Positions 3,904-64,000 of a stretch of 64,000 bases of DNA are shown here, piece after piece. The notes under the pieces are model-generated. The model made no database searches, was not told the origin of the DNA, and saw only the letters and a program-made list of their open reading frames with translations. The DNA lies in UHGV virus genome UHGV-0042229, one strand, 5' to 3'. The position numbers were made by a program, and so were the translations under genes. Position 1 is the first letter of the stretch. Each line of letters opens with the position of its first letter. This stretch comes from a virus.

Positions 3904-3959
3904 ATTGGCAGCCTCCTTAGACGTTGGTATGTAACCACCGCAGAAGAGACCAATCTTGC

Positions 3960-4050
3960 TGGCGGTGGACTGTACGGAGTTGGCCTTACTGGCGTCCAAG
4001 GTAACCAGCCTACCCGAAGGTAGCCCCATACAGCCCACCATTGTAGAGGT
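3960..4050 (-). ncRNA. Putative c4-like antisense RNA of the second immunity module (approximate bounds)
   Basis: Segment aaccagcctacccgaaggtagccccatacagcccaccattgta parallels the presumed c4 region aaccagcaggccgaagcctccccatcacgccccaccataattt upstream of icd at 52226-52270; flanking loop sequence differs. Confidence 0.3.
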
Positions 4051-4063
4051 GTGCGTGTACGCC

Positions 4064-4097
4064 GATACAAAAAAAAGACGCGAGCGGCGTCTGTATC
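4064..4097 (-). terminator. Rho-independent terminator downstream of pacB
   Basis: On the minus strand: stem gacgccgctcgcgtc followed by T8 (A-run 4069-4076 on plus), with outer gataca/tgtatc pairing. Confidence 0.6.
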
Positions 4098-4222
4098 GCC
4101 TTAGACTTAAGCGGGAGGCCAATCCCGGCACCCGTTTTAATGAGGTGCCTGATAAGCATAAACCGAAAATGCCTCAAGGCGCAAGAGGTCAGGTTCAATG
4201 TAACATCGGCAGTCAAAAAACA

Positions 4223-8617: not shown

Positions 8618-8797
8618 TTATCTGCTGCCCGGCATTCTCTGTTTAAGCACAACCATTTCCTGACGGCATAACACAGCAATAGCGGTCCTGGCACCAATTT
8701 GCTTACCAACCAGGTATTGCTTTACCTCGCTGCGACTCACGCCATCAAGAAGCATCTTTAACGCTTCACGGGACAATTTGTTGTATTTGCGTGCCAT
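8618..8797 (-). CDS. Hypothetical small protein (59 aa from internal ATG)
   Basis: ORF track 8618-8818 trimmed to MARKYNKLSREALKMLLDGVSRSEVKQYLVGKQIGARTAIAVL...; possible small DNA-binding protein. Confidence 0.35.
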   Translation of the reverse strand: MARKYNKLSREALKMLLDGVSRSEVKQYLVGKQIGARTAIAVLCRQEMVVLKQRMPGSR

Positions 8798-8801
8798 TAA
8801 T

Positions 8802-9182
8802 CTACTCCGCAGAACCATACAATCTACGTAACGTGTCGGCGACAGAAGATACAGATATCTCTCCGGTCGCAGCCCCTACGGTAAGGTCTGCCAGTTCAGG
8901 TGAATCAAATACCTGCACCCCGTTACGGCGTAGAAATAACAGCGCACTGTTTAGCGCGGTACGCTTATTGGCATCATTGAATATATGCCCTCTCGCTGTA
9001 GCCACCAGGTAGGTGGCGGAGACTTCGAAAAGGTCGGTGATCTCTTCGTAGGCAACTCTGGCCTGAACTCTCCCGATAATGGCCTCTGCCCTACCCGGAT
9101 CTGACATTCCCGGCAGGCCGCCGTAGCGGTTTATATTCGCATCATGAAGCGCAATAAGTTCTTCCGGTGATATATGCCTCAT
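8802..9182 (-). CDS. doc: Doc toxin (Fic/Doc family, 126 aa)
   Basis: 126 aa, [39 protein letters not shown]...[11 protein letters not shown]..., overlapping phd stop. Confidence 0.93.
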
Positions 9183-9403
9183 TATCGGTTAACCAGTTCC
9201 TTGTTGGTGGAGTCCAGGGTGTCAAACAGGGATGCAAATTCAGCATCCAGCGCCGCTTTTTTGTAGGCTTCGAAAGTAGCCTTGCTGACAATTACTGCTG
9301 GCTCACGGCCTCTGCGGGTGATTTCAACCTCTTCCCCGGCTTCAACATTGTTGAGCACTTCAGAAAGGTTGCCGCGCGCGGTACGGAAGTTAATGGATTG
9401 CAT
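9182..9403 (-). CDS. phd: Phd antitoxin (73 aa)
   Basis: [73 protein letters not shown] from ATG at 9403; track ORF starts 2 codons earlier at GTG. Confidence 0.93.
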
Positions 9404-9412
9404 AAACACCTC

Positions 9413-9433
9413 GTGTACTCGTTATGTGTACAC
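9413..9433 (-). promoter_or_regulatory. Putative phd-doc operator (GTGTAC palindromes)
   Basis: gtgtac at 9413-9418 and gtgtacac at 9426-9433 directly upstream of phd. Confidence 0.4.
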
Positions 9434-9579
9434 AATTATAAACTTCACAGGCATAAAGCACCAGCACTTTGCGGCTTAACAAACCTCTAGGCAGATCATT
9501 CGTAGCCTAATGTCCGAACTGCTAAAGCATCCAAGTTGCTGTAGAATCACCGCCAATTACATAAGCCTGAAATAAGTGG

Positions 9580-11141
9580 ATGAAAATGACAAGTATTCAA
9601 CAACGTGCAGAGCTTCATCGTCAAATCTGGCAAATTGCTAACGATGTCAGGGGTTCGGTCGATGGATGGGATTTTAAGCAATACGTTCTGGGCGCACTTT
9701 TCTACCGTTTTATCAGCGAAAATTTTTCCAGCCATATGGAAGCCGGTGATGACAGTATCTGTTATGCGAAACTGGATGACAGCGTAATTACTGATGACAT
9801 TAAAGACGATGCCATCAAAACTAAAGGCTACTTCATCTACCCCAGTCAGCTTTTCTGCAACGTAGCTGCGAAAGCAAATACCAATGACAGACTGAATGCG
9901 GATTTAAACAGCATCTTCGTTGCTATCGAAAGTTCTGCTTACGGTTACCCTTCAGAAGCTGACATCAAAGGTTTGTTTGCTGATTTCGATACCACCAGTA
10001 ACCGCCTGGGTAACACCGTTAAGGATAAAAATGCCCGCCTGGCCGCGGTTCTGAAAGGGGTTGAAGGGTTAAAGCTTGGCGACTTTAACGAACATCAGAT
10101 TGACCTGTTCGGCGATGCCTATGAGTTCCTGATTTCTAACTATGCGGCAAATGCCGGTAAGTCAGGCGGTGAGTTCTTTACACCGCAGCACGTCTCCAAG
10201 CTGATTGCACAACTGGCTATGCACGGGCAGACCAGCGTTAACAAAATCTACGACCCGGCAGCGGGTTCCGGCTCACTGTTGTTGCAGGCGAAAAAACAGT
10301 TTGATAACCATATCATCGAAGAAGGTTTTTCGGTCAGGAAATCAACCATACGACCTATAACCTGGCGCGTATGAACATGTTTTTGCACAACATCAACTAC
10401 GACAAGTTTGATATCAAGCTGGGCAATACGCTGACTGAACCGCACTTCAGAGATGAAAAACCGTTTGATGCCATCGTTTCTAACCCGCCGTATTCGGTGA
10501 AATGGATTGGCAGCGATGACCCGACGCTGATTAACGATGAGCGTTTTGCCCCGGCTGGCGTTCTGGCCCCCAAATCCAAAGCTGACTTTGCGTTTGTATT
10601 ACATGCGCTGAACTATCTTTCGGCCAAAGGTCGTGCTGCGATTGTCTGCTTCCCGGGTATTTTTTACCGTGGCGGCGCAGAGCAGAAAATCCGTCAGTAT
10701 CTGGTCGATAATAACTATGTCGAAACCGTAATTTCACTGGCTCCGAACCTGTTCTTTGGCACCACCATTGCCGTAAACATTCTGGTTCTGTCCAAACATA
10801 AAACGGATACCAACGTTCAGTTTATTGATGCCAGCGAACTGTTCAAAAAAGAGACCAACAACAATATCCTGACCGATGCCCATATCGAACAGATTATGCA
10901 GGTATTTGCCAGCAAGGAAGATGTTGCTCATCTGGCGAAATCTGTTGCGTTTGAGACTGTTGTCGCGAATGACTATAACCTGTCGGTAAGCAGCTATGTG
11001 GAAGCCAAAGATACCCGCGAAGTTGTAGATATCACTGAACTGAATGCCGAACTGAAAACCACCGTCAGCAAAATCGACCAATTGCGCAAAGATATTGATG
11101 CGATTGTGGCTGAAATTGAAGGCTGCGAGGTGCAGAAATGA
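9580..11141 (+). pseudogene. hsdM: Type I R-M methyltransferase subunit HsdM (EcoR124-like), split by a -1 frameshift
   Basis: Track ORFs 9580-10374 (motif [11 protein letters not shown]) and 10371-11141 (motif IV NPPYS) are one HsdM. Frame breaks at GGTTTTTCGG (T5, 10326-10330): window reads [18 protein letters not shown], one extra T gives [25 protein letters not shown] joining the fragments. Confidence 0.8.
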
Positions 11142-12412
11142 GCGAGTTGAGTTATCTGGAAAAATTGCTGGATGGGGTTGAGGTTGAGTGGAAATCTTTG
11201 GGTGAAATTGCCACTAAAATTTACTCAGGGGGAACCCCGGATACAAAAAGAAAAGAGTATTGGGAGAATGGAACTATTCCCTGGATGAGTTCTGGCGAAG
11301 TGAACTTAAAAAATATTGAAAGGACAGAGAAATATATTACTGAGGCTGGATTAAATAACTCTAGTGCCAAATTAGTACCGAGAAACTCTGTAGTCATAGC
11401 CTTGGCTGGTCAGGGAAAAACTCGAGGTAAAGTAGCAAGAATCCGTATCGCATTAGCTACTAATCAATCACTTGCAGCACTTACATTTGATGAAAAGAAA
11501 TTCAGTTCCGATTACGTATTCCATTTTTTAGAGACTCAGTATGAGAGTTTGCGTCAAATATCATCTGGAAACAGCGGACGCGGCGGACTAAATCTGCAAA
11601 TGATTTCAGCATACAAAATCCCAATTCCCTGCCCGGATAATCCGGAAAAATCCCTTGCCATCCAGTCTGAAATCGTTCGGATTCTGGACAAATTCAGCGA
11701 GCTTACAGCAGAGCTTACAGCAGAGCTTAACATGCGTAAAAAACAGTACAACTACTATCGCGACCAGTTGTTGCGTTTTAAAGAGGGTGAGGTTGAGTGG
11801 AAGACTTTGGGGGAAATTGGAGATTTTACATATGGATATGCAGCCAAAGCCATGGATTCAGGAGATGCCCGTTTCGTGAGAATTACTGACATAAATAAAG
11901 ACGGGAAGCTATCGAAAGAAAACCCAATGTACGTTGAATTAAATGAGGAAAATGAGAAATATACCTTAGACAAAAATGATTTACTCATGGCAAGAACTGG
12001 GGCAACCTTTGGTAAAACAATGATTTTTGAAGAAGATTATCCAGCAGTATACGCTGGTTTTTTAATAAAGTTGAACCTAAATAAAACGATTATTAATGCC
12101 AAATATTACTGGCACTTTGCACAAAGTGATTTTTTTTGGGAACAGGCTAATAAATTAGTATCTGGTGGTGGGCAACCACAGTTTAATGCTAATGCACTGA
12201 AACAAGTCAGAGTACCTATTCCATACCCATCTCACCCTCAAAAATCTTTAGACGAACAGGGGCGTATTGTGGATATTCTGGATAAGTTTGATGCAATCGC
12301 AGCTTCCATCACCGAAGGTCTCCCGCGTGAAATCGAGTTGCGCCAGAAACAATACGAGTACTATCGTGATTTACTGTTCAGTTTCCCGAAACCTGAAACT
12401 GTCAGTAATTAA
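11138..12412 (+). CDS. hsdS: Type I R-M specificity subunit HsdS (424 aa), EcoR124 family
   Basis: ATGA overlap with hsdM; two target-recognition domains separated by a central region with tandem TAEL repeats. Confidence 0.88.
11705..11728 (+). repeat. Tandem 12-bp repeat (ACAGCAGAGCTT x2) encoding TAEL-TAEL in HsdS
   Basis: acagcagagctt at 11705-11716 and 11717-11728. In EcoR124I/II the TAEL copy number (2 vs 3) sets the spacer length of the recognition sequence. Confidence 0.8.
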
Positions 12413-12533
12413 TTGACCATTGCTACCGACCGGACCACCTTAACATCCGGTCTGTATATAGACTATTTTTTACGTGCCGGAAGTCACCCTTAACTCCCTT
12501 CCGGCCCTTGCCAGACGGCACAAAGGATGCGCT

Positions 12534-15500
12534 ATGACTCATCAGACACACACTATTGCTGAATCCAATAACTTTATCGTCCTTGATAAGTACATCAAAG
12601 CTGAGCCAACAGGCGACAGCTACCAGAGCGAATCGGACCTGGAACGTGAACTGATTCAGGACCTGCGGAATCAGGGCTATGAATTTATATCCGTAAAATC
12701 TCAGTCGGCTATGCTGTCCAATGTTCGGGAACAGCTTCAGAGCCTCAATGGTGTGGTGTTTAATGACAGCGAGTGGCGGCGTTTCACGGAGCAGTATCTG
12801 GACAACCCGAGCGATGGCATTCTGGATAAAACCCGTAAAATCCATATCGACTATATCTGCGACTTTATTTTTGACGACGGGCGACTTGAGAACATCTATT
12901 TGATAGATAAAAAGAATCTCATGCGCAATAAGGTGCAGATTATCCAGCAGTTTGAACAGACGGGTTCTCATGCTAACCGTTATGACGTCACGATCCTGGT
13001 TAATGGCTTACCACTGGTACAAATCGAACTGAAAAAGCGCGGCGTGGCGATTCGTGAGGCTTTCAACCAGATACATCGTTACAGTAAAGAGAGTTTTAAC
13101 AGCGAAAATTCCCTGTTTAAGTATCTGCAACTGTTTGTCATTTCTAACGGCACCGATACCCGTTACTTTGCCAACACCACAAAGCGCGATAAAAACAGTT
13201 TTGATTTCACCATGAACTGGGCGAAATCAGACAACACGCTGATTAAAGACCTCAAAGACTTTACCGCTACCTTTTTCCAGAAACATACTCTGCTGAATGT
13301 TCTGGTGAACTACAGCGTGTTTGACAGTAGTCAGACGTTACTGGTGATGCGACCGTACCAGATTGCCGCCACCGAGCGCATTCTGTGGAAAATTAAGAGC
13401 TCCTTTACAGCGAAGAACTGGTCAAAACCGGAAAGCGGTGGGTATATCTGGCACACTACCGGTTCTGGTAAAACCCTTACCAGCTTTAAAGCCGCGCGTC
13501 TGGCAACAGAGCTGGACTTTATTGATAAAGTCTTCTTTGTGGTCGACAGAAAAGACCTCGATTACCAGACCATGAAGGAATATCAGCGTTTTTCGCCAGA
13601 CAGCGTCAACGGCTCGGAAAATACCGCAGGCCTTAAACGAAATCTGGATAAGGACGATAACAAAATTATCGTCACTACTATTCAGAAACTCAATAACCTG
13701 ATGAAAGCAGAAAGCGACCTGCCTGTATATAATCAGCAAGTGGTGTTCATATTTGATGAATGCCACCGCAGCCAGTTTGGAGAAGCGCAGAAAAACCTGA
13801 AGAAGAAATTCAAACGCTATTATCAGTTTGGTTTTACCGGCACCCCTATTTTCCCGGAAAACGCCTTAGGCTCAGAAACAACCGCCAGCGTATTTGGTCG
13901 TGAATTGCATTCGTATGTAATTACCGATGCGATTCGTGACGAAAAAGTGCTCAAATTCAAGGTGGACTACAACGATGTGCGGCCACAGTTTAAGTCTTTA
14001 GAGACAGAAACTGACGAGAAAAAACTAAGTGCGGCTGAAAATCAGCAGGCGTTTCTTCATCCCATGCGTATTCAGGAAATCACGCAATATATTCTGAATA
14101 ATTTCCGCCAGAAAACTCACCGTACCTTCCCTGGCTCAAAAGGTTTTAATGCTATGTTGGCAGTGAGCAGCGTGGATGCCGCGAAAGCCTATTATGCGAC
14201 GTTTAAACGGTTACAAGAAGAAGCCGCTAATAAATCGGCTACCTATAAACCGCTGCGTATTGCGACAATCTTCTCCTTTGCCGCCAATGAAGAACAAAAT
14301 GCCATTGGTGAAATTTCCGATGAAACTTTTGATACCAGCGCAATGGACAGCAGTGCTAAAGAGTTTCTGGACGCTGCAATTCGTGAATATAACAGCCATT
14401 TTAAAACTAACTTTAGCACCGACAGTAACGGTTTTCAGAACTACTATCGTGATTTAGCCCAGCGGGTTAAAAATCAGGATATCGATCTGCTAATTGTCGT
14501 GGGGATGTTTTTAACCGGCTTCGATGCTCCAACATTGAACACGCTATTCGTCGATAAAAACTTGCGTTTTCACGGCCTGATGCAGGCATTTTCCCGCACC
14601 AACCGTATTTATGATGCAACTAAAACCTTCGGTAATATCGTCACTTTCCGGGATCTGGAACGCTCAACTATTGATGCCATAACGCTGTTTGGTGACAAAA
14701 ACACCAAAAATGTGGTGTTAGAAAAGAGTTATACAGAGTATATGGAAGGCTTTACTGATGCTACTACTGGTGAAGCTAAACGCGGCTTCATGACAGTAGT
14801 TTCAGAACTGGAACAACGGTTCCCTGACCCTACCAGTATTGAAAGTGAAAAAGAGAAGAAAGACTTCGTTAAACTGTTTGGCGAATACCTGCGTGCCGAG
14901 AACATCCTGCAAAACTATGATGAATTTGCCACGCTAAAAGCCCTGCAACAAATCGATCTTAGCGATCCTGTTGCGGTAGAAAAATTCAAAGCAGAACATT
15001 ATGTGGATGATGAAAAGTTCGCTGAATTGCAAACAATTCGTCTCCCTGCTGATCGCAAGATTCAGGATTATCGTTCTGCCTATAACGATATTCGCGACTG
15101 GCAGCGCCGTGAGAAAGAAGCTGAGAAAAAAGAGAAATCAACCACTGACTGGGATGACGTAGTTTTTGAGGTCGATTTGCTGAAGTCTCAGGAAATAAAC
15201 CTGGATTATATCCTTGGACTGATTTTCGAACACAACAGACAAAATAAAGGCAAGGGCGAAATGATCGAAGAGGTCAAACGCTTAATTCGTTCAAGCCTAG
15301 GGAACCGTGCTAAAGAGGGCCTGGTGGTCGATTTTATTCAGCAAACGAACCTGGATGATTTACCGGACAAAGCCAGCATCATTGACGCATTCTTTACGTT
15401 TGCTCAACGCGAACAGCAACGTGAAGCAGAAGCATTGATAAAAGAAGAAAATCTCAATGAAGATGCAGCAAAACGCTATATTCGCACGTCTTTAAAACGC

Positions 15501-15650
15501 GAATATGCCACCGAAAATGGCACAGAATTAAACGAAACATTACCAAAACTTAGTCCGTTGAATCCGCAATATAAAACGAAAAAACAGGCAGTTTTCCAGA
15601 AAATCGTCTCGTTTATTGAGAAGTTTAAAGGGGTAGGCGGAAAAATATAG
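12534..15650 (+). CDS. hsdR: Type I restriction enzyme R subunit HsdR (1038 aa), EcoR124-like
   Basis: From ATG at 12534 with AAGGA RBS: [33 protein letters not shown]...; helicase motifs (TTGSGKT, DECHRSQ). Track ORF starts 20 codons upstream at GTG. Confidence 0.9.
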
Positions 15651-15729
15651 CCCAATTCGTGTTTTTCTTGCGGGTTCTTTATTAAACCCGCAAGAGATCG
15701 TGGGGTTCCAAATGGCTAATATACTCCCC

Positions 15730-15816
15730 TTACCCATGCGCGACGATGCCGCCAAAAGTGATAGAGAACAGCCAGAAATAGATCGTGGCCATAATGATTT
15801 TGAATGCCGTGTTCAT
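15730..15816 (-). CDS. Hypothetical 28-aa hydrophobic peptide MNTAFKIIMATIYFWLFSITFGGIVAHG
   Basis: ATG at 15816 with GGAG RBS 8 nt upstream; single predicted TM helix; lies downstream (minus strand) of the C1 operator at 15899-15915. Confidence 0.3.
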   Translation of the reverse strand: MNTAFKIIMATIYFWLFSITFGGIVAHG

Positions 15817-15844
15817 ATTTTCAGCTCCAGTGATTGATTGGATA

Positions 15845-15875
15845 CATGCCGCGCCTTGCGGCATGTTTTTATTTT
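15845..15875 (+). terminator. Rho-independent terminator after the hsd operon
   Basis: Stem catgccgc/gcggcatg with 5-nt loop followed by tttttatttt. Confidence 0.6.
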
Positions 15876-15898
15876 CACTTTCTCTGTTTTAAAAATCA

Positions 15899-15915
15899 AG
15901 ATTTATTAGAGCAAT
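15899..15915 (-). promoter_or_regulatory. C1 operator-like site
   Basis: agatttattagagcaat, 16/17 to reverse-complement consensus; followed on the minus strand by TTGATT-N17-GAAAAT. Confidence 0.6.
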
Positions 15916-16421
15916 TATTGTTGATGGAGAAGCGCGTTTTCATACTCCCTGACCATTAACGTAAGTACGCCGTGACTCCTGAAAACACGCGCCACTTCAA
16001 TCTTATCTTCCAGCGCGAACGCGATTTTACTTAGACCAATTTTCTTAAGGAGATCAATCTTTGCTGGGCCGTCATTTCTGTCATCGGTGGCAGGACGCAT
16101 AGATAGCAAAGGCTCAGCCCCATTTGTTACGTGCTTACGCAACCAGGCTCGTGTTTTATCCCTGGCTATCTCACAGCGCCCGGTTACAAACCAGAGGGTG
16201 TAAATGCCGGACAACTGGCGCACCATATCAATAACTGGAGTGATGGGAGCATCAGTGTCACAGGCGAGATTAAACTCGTTCCAGTCCTTTGTTAATGCAC
16301 CTTTACCTGGTGGCGGAAGCAAATGCAGTCTGTCTTCAGTTGCCTCTGATATTGTTCCATCAATATCGACTATGACGATATACGGACGTTCCTGGTGTGC
16401 GTGTTTATTGAAAATACTCAA
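15915..16421 (-). CDS. HAD-superfamily phosphatase (168 aa); P1 pap-like position
   Basis: N-terminal VIVDIDGTIS (DxDGT motif I of HAD hydrolases). Confidence 0.65.
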   Translation of the reverse strand: MSIFNKHAHQERPYIVIVDIDGTISEATEDRLHLLPPPGKGALTKDWNEFNLACDTDAPITPVIDMVRQLSGIYTLWFVTGRCEIARDKTRAWLRKHVTNGAEPLLSMRPATDDRNDGPAKIDLLKKIGLSKIAFALEDKIEVARVFRSHGVLTLMVREYENALLHQQ

Positions 16422-16494
16422 ATGCCCTCCTCATTGGACGAAAAAAAATGCTGGTGGGCGCACTCCACCAGCATTAAAAGTGACACTGTAACTA

Positions 16495-17757
16495 TCAGCG
16501 GACGTAAATAGTGCCGCAGTTCTCTTTTTCCCATGCATCGCTACGTGCATAGCAAACATCGAGAAGTCTTCTTGCCGCTGTTTCCTCTAAACCCAATTCG
16601 ACAACCAACTGCTCATGACGGCGGGTAACCACATCAAACAGGGTATGCAACCCTTTAGTTGCCAGATCATCAATGAATTCCGGTTCGAACGGCAGCTCTG
16701 CATCTGCCAACATAACCTCTTGCGCCCACTCAACTCGACGGACCAATTCCGGGCGGCGGCTTTCCATCTCTTTACAGATCAATTCATGGAAGAACTCTAC
16801 CCAACCTTCCGGCTGGAACTCGCGGAAAATTGCCAACGGCTGGAAGTTTGGCATCAACCATTCGTTGATTCGGATATCAATGGCATAGCCCATGTCGCAG
16901 CAGAACTGATAAGCAAAGTCCAGCTTAGAAACGATATAAGGACGCTCGTTATTGAACTCTTTAGGCGATGAGATCCCATAAGCCAGGAGGCGCGGGAAGA
17001 AGGAGATTTGCCCTAACGTCGGATGAAGTTTGCTTGCAGGGAAACGGCGCTCAGTAATGCCATACATTTCCTTCTTGAGCGTCGCAAATTTGGCATTCTC
17101 ATTAACCAGCGCGGTAACCTCTGCTTTTTTATTAGCAAATGCCACGCGCGCTTCGCTTGCATCTTTAATAGTTTTTTTGAGCTGTTGGTTAAGGTCGGCG
17201 ACCTGCTTACGCAGTTCCTGTCGCTCGCTTTTAGCTTTGTTATAGCGTTTCTCAAGGTTAAAAGGATCAAGTTTCATGATCTCTTTATATTGAGATTTTA
17301 GCGTTGAAATCTGTGAGTTCCGCAGTTCAACCATCGCGGTCATTTCATTGAGTTTTGTTTCCAGCTCAATGCTTATACGTTCGGCATTATCAGCACGCTG
17401 GTTGGCGTCATGCGTCGCATCGTCGATCGCGTCCTGTTGCTGGCGTTTCAAATGTTCAATTTGCAGCTGAAGCTCTTCAATTTCTTTACCCTTCAGACCG
17501 AGATCCAACTGCATATTTTCAGCTGCATCTACCAGGGAGTTATGGCTATCAGCTTCTGCGTTATAAACATCAATAAGCTGTGCGTGAAGCATCTCCGCTG
17601 ACTGAACCGCATTATCAAAAAAACGCGCTGTGAGGTCATCACAACTAACGCGGCGTTGCGCGGCCCGGATGTTCTGGATAATGGCCGGGATACCGGCATT
17701 CAGGACGTCAGGGATAGATACATTTTCGATTGATTGGTTTTGTGCTGAAGTGATCAT
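16495..17757 (-). CDS. Hypothetical protein (420 aa), central coiled-coil
   Basis: ORF track; heptad-rich region ~residues 90-200; no family recognised. Confidence 0.55.
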   Translation of the reverse strand: MITSAQNQSIENVSIPDVLNAGIPAIIQNIRAAQRRVSCDDLTARFFDNAVQSAEMLHAQLIDVYNAEADSHNSLVDAAENMQLDLGLKGKEIEELQLQIEHLKRQQQDAIDDATHDANQRADNAERISIELETKLNEMTAMVELRNSQISTLKSQYKEIMKLDPFNLEKRYNKAKSERQELRKQVADLNQQLKKTIKDASEARVAFANKKAEVTALVNENAKFATLKKEMYGITERRFPASKLHPTLGQISFFPRLLAYGISSPKEFNNERPYIVSKLDFAYQFCCDMGYAIDIRINEWLMPNFQPLAIFREFQPEGWVEFFHELICKEMESRRPELVRRVEWAQEVMLADAELPFEPEFIDDLATKGLHTLFDVVTRRHEQLVVELGLEETAARRLLDVCYARSDAWEKENCGTIYVR

Positions 17758-38190: not shown

Positions 38191-38294
38191 TTGACTATAC
38201 GCGATTTTATGTTGACTGTGCACGATTTATTGTTGACTGCACGCGATTTATTGTTGACTATACGCGACAGAAACATTGACTGTAAGCGATTTTA
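38191..38294 (+). repeat. Five direct iterons (origin-proximal array, incC-like)
   Basis: Starts 38191, 38212, 38233, 38254, 38276 (21-22 bp period): TTGACTATACGCGA, TTGACTGTGCACGA, TTGACTGCACGCGA, TTGACTATACGCGA, TTGACTGTAAGCGA. Confidence 0.8.
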
Positions 38295-48401: not shown

Positions 48402-48557
48402 TTACCTTTCAGATTCGTAGGCTGTGAAGACAGTGACCTCCGTCTGGCCGGTTCGGATTCGTACCTCGCAGAGGTCTTTCCTCGTTACCAGTGCCGTCAC
48501 AATGACGGTTAAACAGATGACGATCAGAGCGATTAACATCGCTTTTTGCTGCTTCAT
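48402..48557 (-). CDS. Hok/Gef-family type I toxin (51 aa)
   Basis: MKQQKAMLIALIVICLTVIVTALVTRKDLCEVRIRTGQTEVTVFTAYESER, near-identical in pattern to E. coli Gef (MKQHKAMIVALIVICITAVVAALVTRKDLCEVHIRTGQTEVAVFTAYESE). Confidence 0.75.
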   Translation of the reverse strand: MKQQKAMLIALIVICLTVIVTALVTRKDLCEVRIRTGQTEVTVFTAYESER

Positions 48558-48615
48558 AGCCTGCTTCTCCTTGACCTTTTGGTCGGTAAGAGGCTAATCT
48601 ACGTATGCTAAGCAT
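48409..48615 (-). CDS. mok-like overlapping reading frame (68 aa)
   Basis: Track ORF in a different frame covering almost all of the hok-like gene, as mok does in hok/sok loci. Confidence 0.4.
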   Translation of the reverse strand: MLSIRRLASYRPKGQGEAGYEAAKSDVNRSDRHLFNRHCDGTGNEERPLRGTNPNRPDGGHCLHSLRI

Positions 48616-48738
48616 AGATATGGCCTCAGATTAATGTTAAGCGTCTTGCAGGACGCGTAATGTTATCTGGGGCTTTCTTCTATCTGCTTTTCGGGTAATG
48701 CCTGAAGCAGATAGCCTCAAGCACCCGCAACGATTGTA

Positions 48739-52135: not shown

Positions 52136-52194
52136 AGTTACGGCCTCACAATCAGGTTTAACAACCTGCTACCCGCTGCTAAACAGGTGGCAGG

Positions 52195-52300
52195 ACGTGA
52201 CGGGGTTAGCAGACTGGCGATTGTGAAACCAGCAGGCCGAAGCCTCCCCATCACGCCCCACCATAATTTGGGCGTAACGCAGTTTTACGGACACAAAAAT
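52195..52300 (-). ncRNA. c4: Putative c4 antisense RNA region (approximate bounds)
   Basis: Between operator and icd; direct repeats gctgctaaac at 52175-52184 and 52344-52353 (candidate targets) flank a segment whose transcript carries the complementary ctgctaac (plus strand gttagcag, 52205-52212). Exact ends not determined. Confidence 0.4.
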
Positions 52301-52449
52301 ACCGCAATATCGGATATCTGCGGCTGTCCGCACAATCATTCAGGCTGCTAAACCCGGTCGCAGAATTTGCTACGACGGCGAAACTATAAGCCTGAACGAT
52401 TAAAAGGTCAATATGATGCAAAAAGATAGCATTCGCGACTTAAAAATAC

Positions 52450-62597: not shown

Positions 62598-64000
62598 ATG
62601 AATGACGTTACAGTTGTTACATCGGTTACTTACCCATCACCCGAGTCGTTGGCTCTGGTGGCTGATGTGCAATACCACGAACCATATCTGTCAGCCGCTC
62701 TAAACCGAAAATTCAGGGGAATTGTTGACCCGGGATTTTATGCTGGTTTCTTGCCTAAGCCTGGCGGTGGAATGAACCTGTTAATCACCTCAGTGGATGG
62801 AGATAAAACCGCTGGCGCGGCGTCAGTGGATATTGGTGAATTCTACCAGGTAACTATTCAGCATCGTAAGGATATCTCTCTTGCACTTAACGCAGGCAAG
62901 AAATATGCAATTGTGCTGAAGGGAAGATACCTTCTTGGAGAAGATACCTATCAGGTGAATACCGCGTCACATATTCATGCAGCTGAATTTGTTGCCAGAA
63001 CCTATACCGATTCATATCAGTTAGGTGATGGGGAACTGCTGGTTTGTACGGTGAATATCCCTGCTGGCGTATCTACCATTACTCAAGAGATGATTGATAC
63101 ATCCGAGCGTATCAACCGCACGATCGGCATTGATATTTCAGACTCTGTAACCAGTACCAGAAGTGATGTTGCTGCGAGTTCGCTGGCAGTTAAAAAAGCC
63201 TACGATCTGGCGAAAAGCAAGTATACGGCGCAGGATGCAAGCACAACGCAAAAGGGATTAGTTCAGCTCAGTAGTGCCACTAACAGTACGTCCGAAGTGC
63301 TGGCCGCCACACCGAAAGCTGTCAAGGCTGCATATGACCTGGCTAACGGGAAGTATACAGCCCAGGATGCAACCACGACACAAAAAGGGATAGTTCAGCT
63401 CAGTAGCGACACCAACAGCACTTCTGAAACATTAGCTGCAACTCCAAAAGCGGTTAAAGCTGCATACGATCTAGCAGCCGGAAAGGCACCATCCAGTCAT
63501 ACACATCCCTGGAATCAGATCACTGGTGTGCCAACAGCTTCATTGACAGCGAAAGGCATCACTCAGCTCAGTAGTGCCACTAACAGCACGTCCGAAGTGC
63601 TGGCCGCCACACCGAAAGCTGTCAAGGCTGCATATGACCTGGCTAACGGGAAGTATACAGCCCAGGATGCAACCACGGCTCAAAAAGGGATAGTCCAACT
63701 CAGCAGTGCTACCAATAGCACGTCCGAAGTGCTGGCCGCCACACCGAAAGCTGTCAAGGCTGCATATGATTTGGCTAATGGAAAGCAAGCGGCAGACGCT
63801 ACGCTCACTGCTCTAGCGGCACTAGCTACAGCAGCAGATAAACTCCCTTATTTCACAGGTGTTGATCGTGCCGCGTTAACTGCATTGACAAGTGTTGGAC
63901 GCGCCATTCTTGGTAAGACCAGTATTCAGAGCGTTCTTGATTACCTTGGTTTAGGGGAAGGCTCGGCGCTGCCCGTTGGTGTACCTGTTCCATGGCCCTC
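62598..64000 (+). CDS. Tail fibre protein S, N-terminal ~467 codons (continues past window end)
   Basis: ATG at 62598 with AAGGA RBS; open to window end; four copies of a ~40-aa fibre repeat (T(A/T)QKGxVQLSSxTNSTSExLAATPKAVKAAYDLAxGK). Not in ORF track because truncated. Confidence 0.8.
   Translation, partial: MNDVTVVTSVTYPSPESLALVADVQYHEPYLSAALNRKFRGIVDPGFYAGFLPKPGGGMNLLITSVDGDKTAGAASVDIGEFYQVTIQHRKDISLALNAGKKYAIVLKGRYLLGEDTYQVNTASHIHAAEFVARTYTDSYQLGDGELLVCTVNIPAGVSTITQEMIDTSERINRTIGIDISDSVTSTRSDVAASSLAVKKAYDLAKSKYTAQDASTTQKGLVQLSSATNSTSEVLAATPKAVKAAYDLANGKYTAQDATTTQKGIVQLSSDTNSTSETLAATPKAVKAAYDLAAGKAPSSHTHPWNQITGVPTASLTAKGITQLSSATNSTSEVLAATPKAVKAAYDLANGKYTAQDATTAQKGIVQLSSATNSTSEVLAATPKAVKAAYDLANGKQAADATLTALAALATAADKLPYFTGVDRAALTALTSVGRAILGKTSIQSVLDYLGLGEGSALPVGVPVPWP
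63264..63677 (+). repeat. Near-identical 114-bp direct repeats inside the fibre gene (63264-63377 and 63564-63677), plus a 49-bp third copy at 63721-63769
   Basis: The two 114-bp copies differ at one position and lie exactly 300 bp apart. Confidence 0.8.

Follow-up and report, generated by a model that had tools for sequence, protein, structure and literature searches.

A two-copy TAEL repeat in the HsdS subunit of an EcoR124-family type IC operon on a P1-like phage-plasmid

The type IC family of restriction-modification systems is classically defined by subunit complementation or antibody cross-reaction with EcoR124I, and the length mechanism of its TAEL repeat, worked out for EcoR124I and EcoR124II in the late 1980s, has been textbook knowledge since 1989. 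EcoR124I, from plasmid R124, carries two TAEL units and recognizes GAA N6 RTCG, whereas EcoR124II, from R124/3, carries three and recognizes GAA N7 RTCG, the change having come about via unequal crossing-over (PMC3874165). [quoted passage not shown] Three TAEL units are also carried by EcoDXXI (TCA N7 RTTC) and EcoPrrI, and in the EcoR124I/EcoDXXI hybrids EcoDR2/DR3 and EcoRD2/RD3 the repeat number shifts the spacer from N6 to N7 whatever the TRDs (PMC3874165). In NgoAV, a type IC system of Neisseria gonorrhoeae, natural variation in the number of central-region LEAT tetrapeptides changes the spacer between N6 and N7, as determined from methylomes (PMC6789123), and the engineered loss of one TAEL unit is reported to re-target phage defence (PMC10644984).

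The operon described here lies in a 64-kb window (the whole stretch of DNA analysed) that is a P1-like phage-plasmid, its ends matching P1 cre/lox and P1 tail genes. Rfam and ARAGORN matches in the window (3958–4148, 48552–48726, 52183–52389 and 29200–30860) comprise tRNA-Met, tRNA-Thr and tRNA-Asn together with a sok antitoxin RNA, isrK and two C4 antisense RNAs with their a1/b1 target; of these, the tRNAs and the C4 RNAs are as expected of a P1-like genome. The hsd cassette sits between phd/doc and pap (Table 1), where it takes the place of P1 pmgT-humD (window 15700–17757 and 8618–9403). The P1 reference annotation notes that these flanks match sequence lying upstream of the hsd genes of EcoDXXI and, on the other side, downstream of those of EcoDXXI and R124/3, and phd/doc–pap is the classical location for type IC systems. 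EcoDXXI thus has exactly the flanks found in the window (the P1 phd/doc side and the pap side), and differs in its three TAEL copies (PMC3874165) as against two here. Relatives of the locus occur on hundreds of E. coli plasmids and chromosomes, and a literature search for type IC systems in P1-like phage-plasmids returned none. One phd/doc-flanked locus (L029; E. coli ST540, NZ_CP007265, 1446497–1453860, a record labelled chromosome) encodes an HsdS that is 100% identical to that of EcoR124I in its N-terminal half and 99.6% in its C-terminal half.

Table 1. Features of the hsd cassette in the window, and hsdS alleles with four, five or eight TAEL copies in other records
Feature	Position or locus	Strand	Evidence or context
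doc and phd (P1 addiction module), left border of hsd cassette	8802..9403	-	ORFs, P1 comparison
hsdM, disrupted, two ORFs (9580-10374 and 10371-11141)	9580..11141	+	one added T restores 520 aa
T5 run, -1 frameshift site in hsdM (T6 in closest intact allele)	10326..10330	+	alignment to intact hsdM
hsdS, type IC specificity subunit, 424 aa	11138..12412	+	Pfam Methylase_S, EcoR124 S subunit match
HsdS N-terminal conserved region, aa 1-22	11138..11203	+	86% identical to EcoR124I
TRD1, aa 23-160	11204..11617	+	without significant match to EcoR124I TRD1; 36% identical to EcoR124I TRD2
Central conserved region, aa 161-229, holds TAEL repeat	11618..11824	+	96% identical to EcoR124I
12-bp tandem repeat, two TAEL units of HsdS central helix	11699..11729	+	direct reading, Tandem Repeats Finder
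TRD2, aa 230-368	11825..12241	+	without significant similarity to either EcoR124I TRD
HsdS C-terminal conserved region, aa 369-424, partner helix	12242..12409	+	84% identical to EcoR124I
Promoter-like site, hsdS-hsdR gap	12440..12469	+	consensus match only
hsdR, 1038 aa, intact	12534..15650	+	near-identical to EcoR124I HsdR (2w00)
Terminator-like hairpin 3′ of hsdR	15844..15866	+	consensus match only
pap-like phosphatase gene of P1, right border of hsd cassette	15915..16421	-	ORFs, P1 comparison
hsdS with 8 TAEL copies	L013 (CP050031)		E. coli chromosome, IS-disrupted operon
hsdS with 5 TAEL copies	L014 (AP021896)		E. coli chromosome, IS-disrupted operon
hsdS with 5 TAEL copies	L026 (CP122872)		E. 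coli chromosome, IS-disrupted operon
hsdS with 4 TAEL copies	L015 (CP101014)		E. coli chromosome, IS-disrupted operon
hsdS with 4 TAEL copies	L028 (AP027754)		E. coli chromosome, IS-disrupted operon

The three genes follow the type IC order hsdM–hsdS–hsdR, shared with EcoR124I and with annotated relatives. The hsdS ATG overlaps the hsdM stop (ATGA), and a short gap separates hsdS from hsdR, for which the program-made ORF begins further 5′, at GTG 12474. HsdR matches EcoR124I HsdR along its whole length (2w00; 2297 bits across residues 1–1038), and HsdM, with one T added to its gene, aligns with EcoR124 HsdM (7bst_D; 1154 bits, residues 1–520) with a handful of substitutions, a closeness to EcoR124I that is a mark of type IC membership. 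As sequenced, not all three subunit genes are intact: hsdS and hsdR are, and hsdM is frameshifted.

The hsdS product matches Pfam Methylase_S (E = 8e-41), and its best match among solved structures is the EcoR124 S subunit (PDB 7bst_A, 404 aa; E = 1.8e-92). In this alignment the N-terminal, central and C-terminal regions are near-identical and the stretches between them align poorly, which is the type IC layout of three conserved regions flanking two variable TRDs, with the repeat inside the central region. The window shares with EcoR124I the same two TAEL units and the same downstream NMRKKQY in this region; it differs in both TRDs, in having SEL in place of TAL before the repeat, and in its frameshifted hsdM. 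By these comparisons the operon is a type IC (EcoR124-family) restriction-modification system with its own TRD pair. The window TRD2 recurs joined to other TRD1s in other E. coli alleles, and the locus (9400–15700) is a mosaic relative to that of plasmid pLR-48_1 (L001), from which hsdS differs at about 1 position per 900 bp as against 13–22 differences per 300 bp in the 3′ part of hsdM and parts of hsdR. That hsdS is so much closer to pLR-48_1 than its neighbours suggests that the hsdS cassette may have been exchanged by recombination within conserved flanks. Public E. coli assemblies include a protein identical to the window HsdS (P0001), and databases already contain near-identical ones; a literature search for the HsdS protein accessions found no paper that mentions them.

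Direct reading of positions 11699–11729 gives GAGCTTACAGCA twice, followed by GAGCTTA, i.e. an exact period of 12 over 31 bp (2.6 units). Tandem Repeats Finder places the array at 11695–11729 (period 12, score 63), starting at 11695 because the imperfect 5′ unit CAGC-GAGCTTA, coding SEL, is included. Only three tandem arrays in the 64-kb window score at least 50, this tract among them, and the chance expectation for 19 consecutive period-12 matches in a window of this size is ∼64000 × 4^-19, or ∼2e-7. The tract is in frame with the 424-aa hsdS ORF and encodes (E)LTAELTAEL(N). Two TAEL units are thus present as the tetrapeptide tandem repeat in the central conserved region that is a trait of type IC systems. 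Most other listed alleles, EcoR124I included, have TAL where the window HsdS has SEL before the TAEL copies, and this replacement makes the exact DNA repeat longer, at 31 bp. A preliminary description had claimed a central TAEL tandem repeat of EcoR124-family type in two copies. The direct reading, the Tandem Repeats Finder array and the ORF translation bear out the repeat and its copy number, and the operon and HsdS comparisons agree with the family; the coordinates given for it hold to within one codon, the peptide string quoted there corresponding to 11702–11731, a 3-nt offset. The TAEL tract at this position is already known, and everything seen here fits known type IC biology.

The tract is, very probably, the TAEL repeat in the central helix of a type IC HsdS, within a phd/doc–pap cassette on a P1-like phage-plasmid, that acts as a determinant of spacer length in the following manner. 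The central helix would pair antiparallel with the C-terminal conserved helix to form the coiled coil that holds the TRDs apart, and each 12-bp unit, contributing four residues or about one helical turn, would place the TRDs about one base-pair step further apart. Two copies would give the EcoR124I geometry, mostly written N6, and three copies 1 bp more, a relation that is established for EcoR124I/II and for the EcoR124I/EcoDXXI hybrids and that we infer for the present allele. Slippage or unequal crossing-over in the 31-bp exact repeat would be the source of changes in copy number, for which the evidence at this locus is the comparison of alleles with 1, 2 and 3 copies. In the protein as read directly, DKF and KQY are separated by 15 residues in the two-copy central helix and by 19 in the C-terminal partner helix. 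A third copy would make the two helices equal in length, which fits the remark in the review that three copies looks optimal (PMC3874165).

That two as against three TAEL copies shifts the spacer by 1 bp through unequal crossing-over had been invoked in the preliminary description, and the rule is as quoted (PMC3874165). The further claim that two copies predict N6 holds in a narrower form: what is predicted for the window allele is the EcoR124I-type interval between methylated adenines, and N6 is just the commonest nominal spacer for that interval. The nominal spacer of this allele is most likely N6, a likely value only because the nominal spacer also depends on the position of the methylated base in each half-site. 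The half-sites are predicted not to be those of EcoR124I (GAA/RTCG), because both TRDs differ. Unrelated TRDs had been named beforehand as the observation that would make the spacer prediction inapplicable; neither window TRD has significant similarity to its EcoR124I counterpart, yet the prediction is not voided, since in the hybrids of EcoR124I and EcoDXXI the spacing follows the copy number irrespective of the TRD. EcoR124II, of the same family, is the three-copy member of the pair by which the length switch is defined; compared with it, the window allele has two copies and different TRDs, and natural three-copy counterparts of the window allele exist as well (L011 and L012). NgoAV is the more distant parallel, with a LEAT repeat of other register and sequence, another host, and a specificity that also depends on downstream truncation.

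The state of hsdM, which the preliminary description missed, bears on whether the repeat is in use. The closest intact hsdM, on plasmid p20170604CC-1, is 99% identical and reads GGTTTTTTCGG where the window reads GGTTTTTCGG, a -1 frameshift (T6 to T5, 10326–10330); with one T added, the window gene encodes 520 aa, near-identical in sequence to EcoR124 HsdM. Searches of 1419 E. coli records, 702 plasmids and IMG/VR gave no instance of the T5 allele, which is unique to the window among about 2100 related records, and hsdM is full-length on every other contig with the identical HsdS, IS-affected ones excepted. A shared frameshift hotspot in hsdM was not found, the lesions of L016, L020, L025 and the window being at different sites. 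A single sequencing error in the homopolymer could account for the T5 run; against this, the window has just one other homopolymer length difference relative to its relatives in ∼15 kb, and 9.4 kb of tail genes show none. The frameshift is probably a real lesion. The other difference, at ∼16441 in the pap-pmgS gap, is an A8 run as against A7 in two relatives and is probably non-coding. If the frameshift is real, no M2S methyltransferase core would form, given how type I enzymes assemble, and the system would be off in this genome; as hsdM is frameshifted, the repeat probably sits in a system that is currently silent here. The premature stop overlaps an in-frame ATG (ATGA, 10371–10374), and re-initiation there could yield a 256-aa C-terminal HsdM fragment that contains NPPY.

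A stronger reading of the same lesion is that the whole locus is a decaying relic here, with hsdM a true pseudogene, no M2S core and a repeat without current function, and we put its chances at slightly better than even. Besides the frameshift itself, this reading draws on the partition of the gene, in which the N-terminal fragment keeps DPAAGSG, read as the AdoMet-binding motif, and most of the N6_Mtase catalytic domain, NPPY included, falls in the other ORF; on the small number of other indels in the window versus its relatives; and on the frequency with which hsd operons of the EcoR124 family are broken by other lesions. Decay of the locus is harder to reconcile with hsdS and hsdR, which are intact, and with the 100% identity of the window hsdS to alleles of intact operons. 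The lesion is moreover a single base in a homopolymer and unique among the ∼2100 records, and is therefore either very recent or a sequencing error.

Whether or not the system is active in this genome, the reading of the tract as a spacer-length determinant draws on variation in copy number on one TRD pair. The HsdS of plasmids pLR-71-1_3 and pP377-1 (L011 and L012; 428 aa) equals the 424-aa HsdS of pLR-48_1, itself three substitutions from that of the window, plus one ELTA, and the three-copy and two-copy loci are 99.5% identical over 9.2 kb. The window TRD pair also occurs in one-copy form, in P0007 and P0008 (420 aa). A single TRD pair is thus found with one (P0007, P0008 and L019), two (window and L001) and three copies (L011 and L012). 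A second intact pair consists of pEC276_1 (L033) with two copies versus pCRE10.1 and pKBN10P04869A (L037/L038) with three, their halves being 100% identical, and one IS3-truncated lineage has 3, 4, 5 and 5 copies on identical sequence, the three-copy member being L036. Repeat units are uniform inside each allele and synonymously different between alleles (ACAGCAGAGCTT, ACCGCTGAGCTT and ACAGCAGAGCTG), which points to recent and repeated turnover by gain and loss. From these comparative data, the tract is a recurrent length polymorphism on fixed TRDs.

It is unlikely, by contrast, that the repeat is a fixed structural feature without operational switching, with two and three copies being two old, stable allele classes between which changes are too rare to matter. 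The tract is just 2.6 units long, dozens of contigs share identical two-copy alleles, and nearly every sampled record has exactly two or three copies, all of which would suit such a view. It is opposed by the occurrence of 1, 2 and 3 copies of the repeat on one TRD pair, by the second intact 2/3 pair, by the IS3-truncated lineage and by the homogenization of units within alleles, which together argue for repeated recent change. What the fixed-feature evidence does constrain is the tempo of the change. Over epidemiological time the tract is stable, as identical two-copy proteins are widespread (P0002 on 47 contigs, P0001 in 27 index blocks); with only 2.6 units and identical alleles stably common to dozens of contigs, the variation is thus an evolutionary length polymorphism. 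The designation of the repeat as a specificity switch in the preliminary description therefore stands in so far as identical TRDs are found with 1, 2 and 3 copies. It finds no support as fast switching of the phasevarion type, which relies on a long, fast-changing tract, whereas this one has 2.6 units of 12 bp, is in frame, and occurs as identical alleles on many contigs. It is very improbable that the T6/T5 tract in hsdM, and not the TAEL repeat, is a working ON/OFF phase-variable switch on the phage-plasmid, for although the frameshift falls in a homopolymer and an in-frame ATG lies across the premature stop, a run of six T is short for a contingency tract, T5 occurs in none of the E. coli, plasmid and IMG/VR records searched, and other broken hsdM genes have their lesions at different sites.

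The distribution of copy numbers was taken from a systematic sample of 60 rows, drawn from the 1321 E. coli records that contain this region, in which copy number was read from match length, a measure confirmed in 11/11 fetched loci. The sample holds 28 two-copy, 26 three-copy and 1 five-copy alleles and 5 unclear rows, so that on this sample two and three copies appear about equally common across E. coli complete genomes. In IMG/VR viral contigs, 23 alleles have two copies, 10 have three and none has one. Match length was used because BLAST identity bands are unable to count copies, pieces being joined and gaps blurring the bands. A protein-search census (among the best 120 hits, 114 two-copy and none three-copy) was likewise set aside, as its ranking favours the length of the query itself and in the DNA census three-copy alleles are about as frequent as two-copy ones.

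Alleles with 4, 5 or 8 copies are seen only in operons disrupted by IS1 or IS3 (5/5 loci; Table 1), whereas 8/10 of the sampled two- or three-copy loci are fully intact and 2/10 are disrupted. The difference (p about 0.1, an estimate) is only suggestive of an association between odd copy number and broken operons, because the five loci collapse to three lineages. One-copy alleles occur in intact operons (L019 and L024) and in independently broken ones (L016, L020–23, L025 and L027), and the broken fraction among one-copy loci (4/6) is not significant. These few lineages suggest that selection may keep working systems at two or three copies. More tentatively, and with considerable doubt on our part, the TAEL tract may be intrinsically unstable and held at two to three copies by selection in working type IC systems, in which case the intact one-copy alleles could be active, with a spacer 1 bp below the EcoR124I class. 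No description of an active one-copy state was found in the literature searched, which left out Gubler & Bickle 1991 and Adamczyk-Poplawska 2003.

For annotation, the defence cassette can be named as a system of the EcoR124 family at the classical site between P1 flanks, with EcoR124I-type half-site spacing predicted and the system flagged as probably inactive in this genome. The prediction of type I specificities from sequence is modestly informed by the natural series of one, two and three copies on identical TRDs, and also by the ∼50:50 split between two and three copies in E. coli, with at least four copies only in dead operons.

Two further repeats were noted elsewhere in the window. At 38191–38267 a 21-bp unit is present in 3.7 copies with 82% matches and may represent the replication/incompatibility iterons of a P1-type replicon. 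At 63219–63466 a 132-bp unit is repeated 1.9 times at the edge of the match to the P1 tail-fibre gene S, a place for which the annotation of P1 lists repeated elements a and b.
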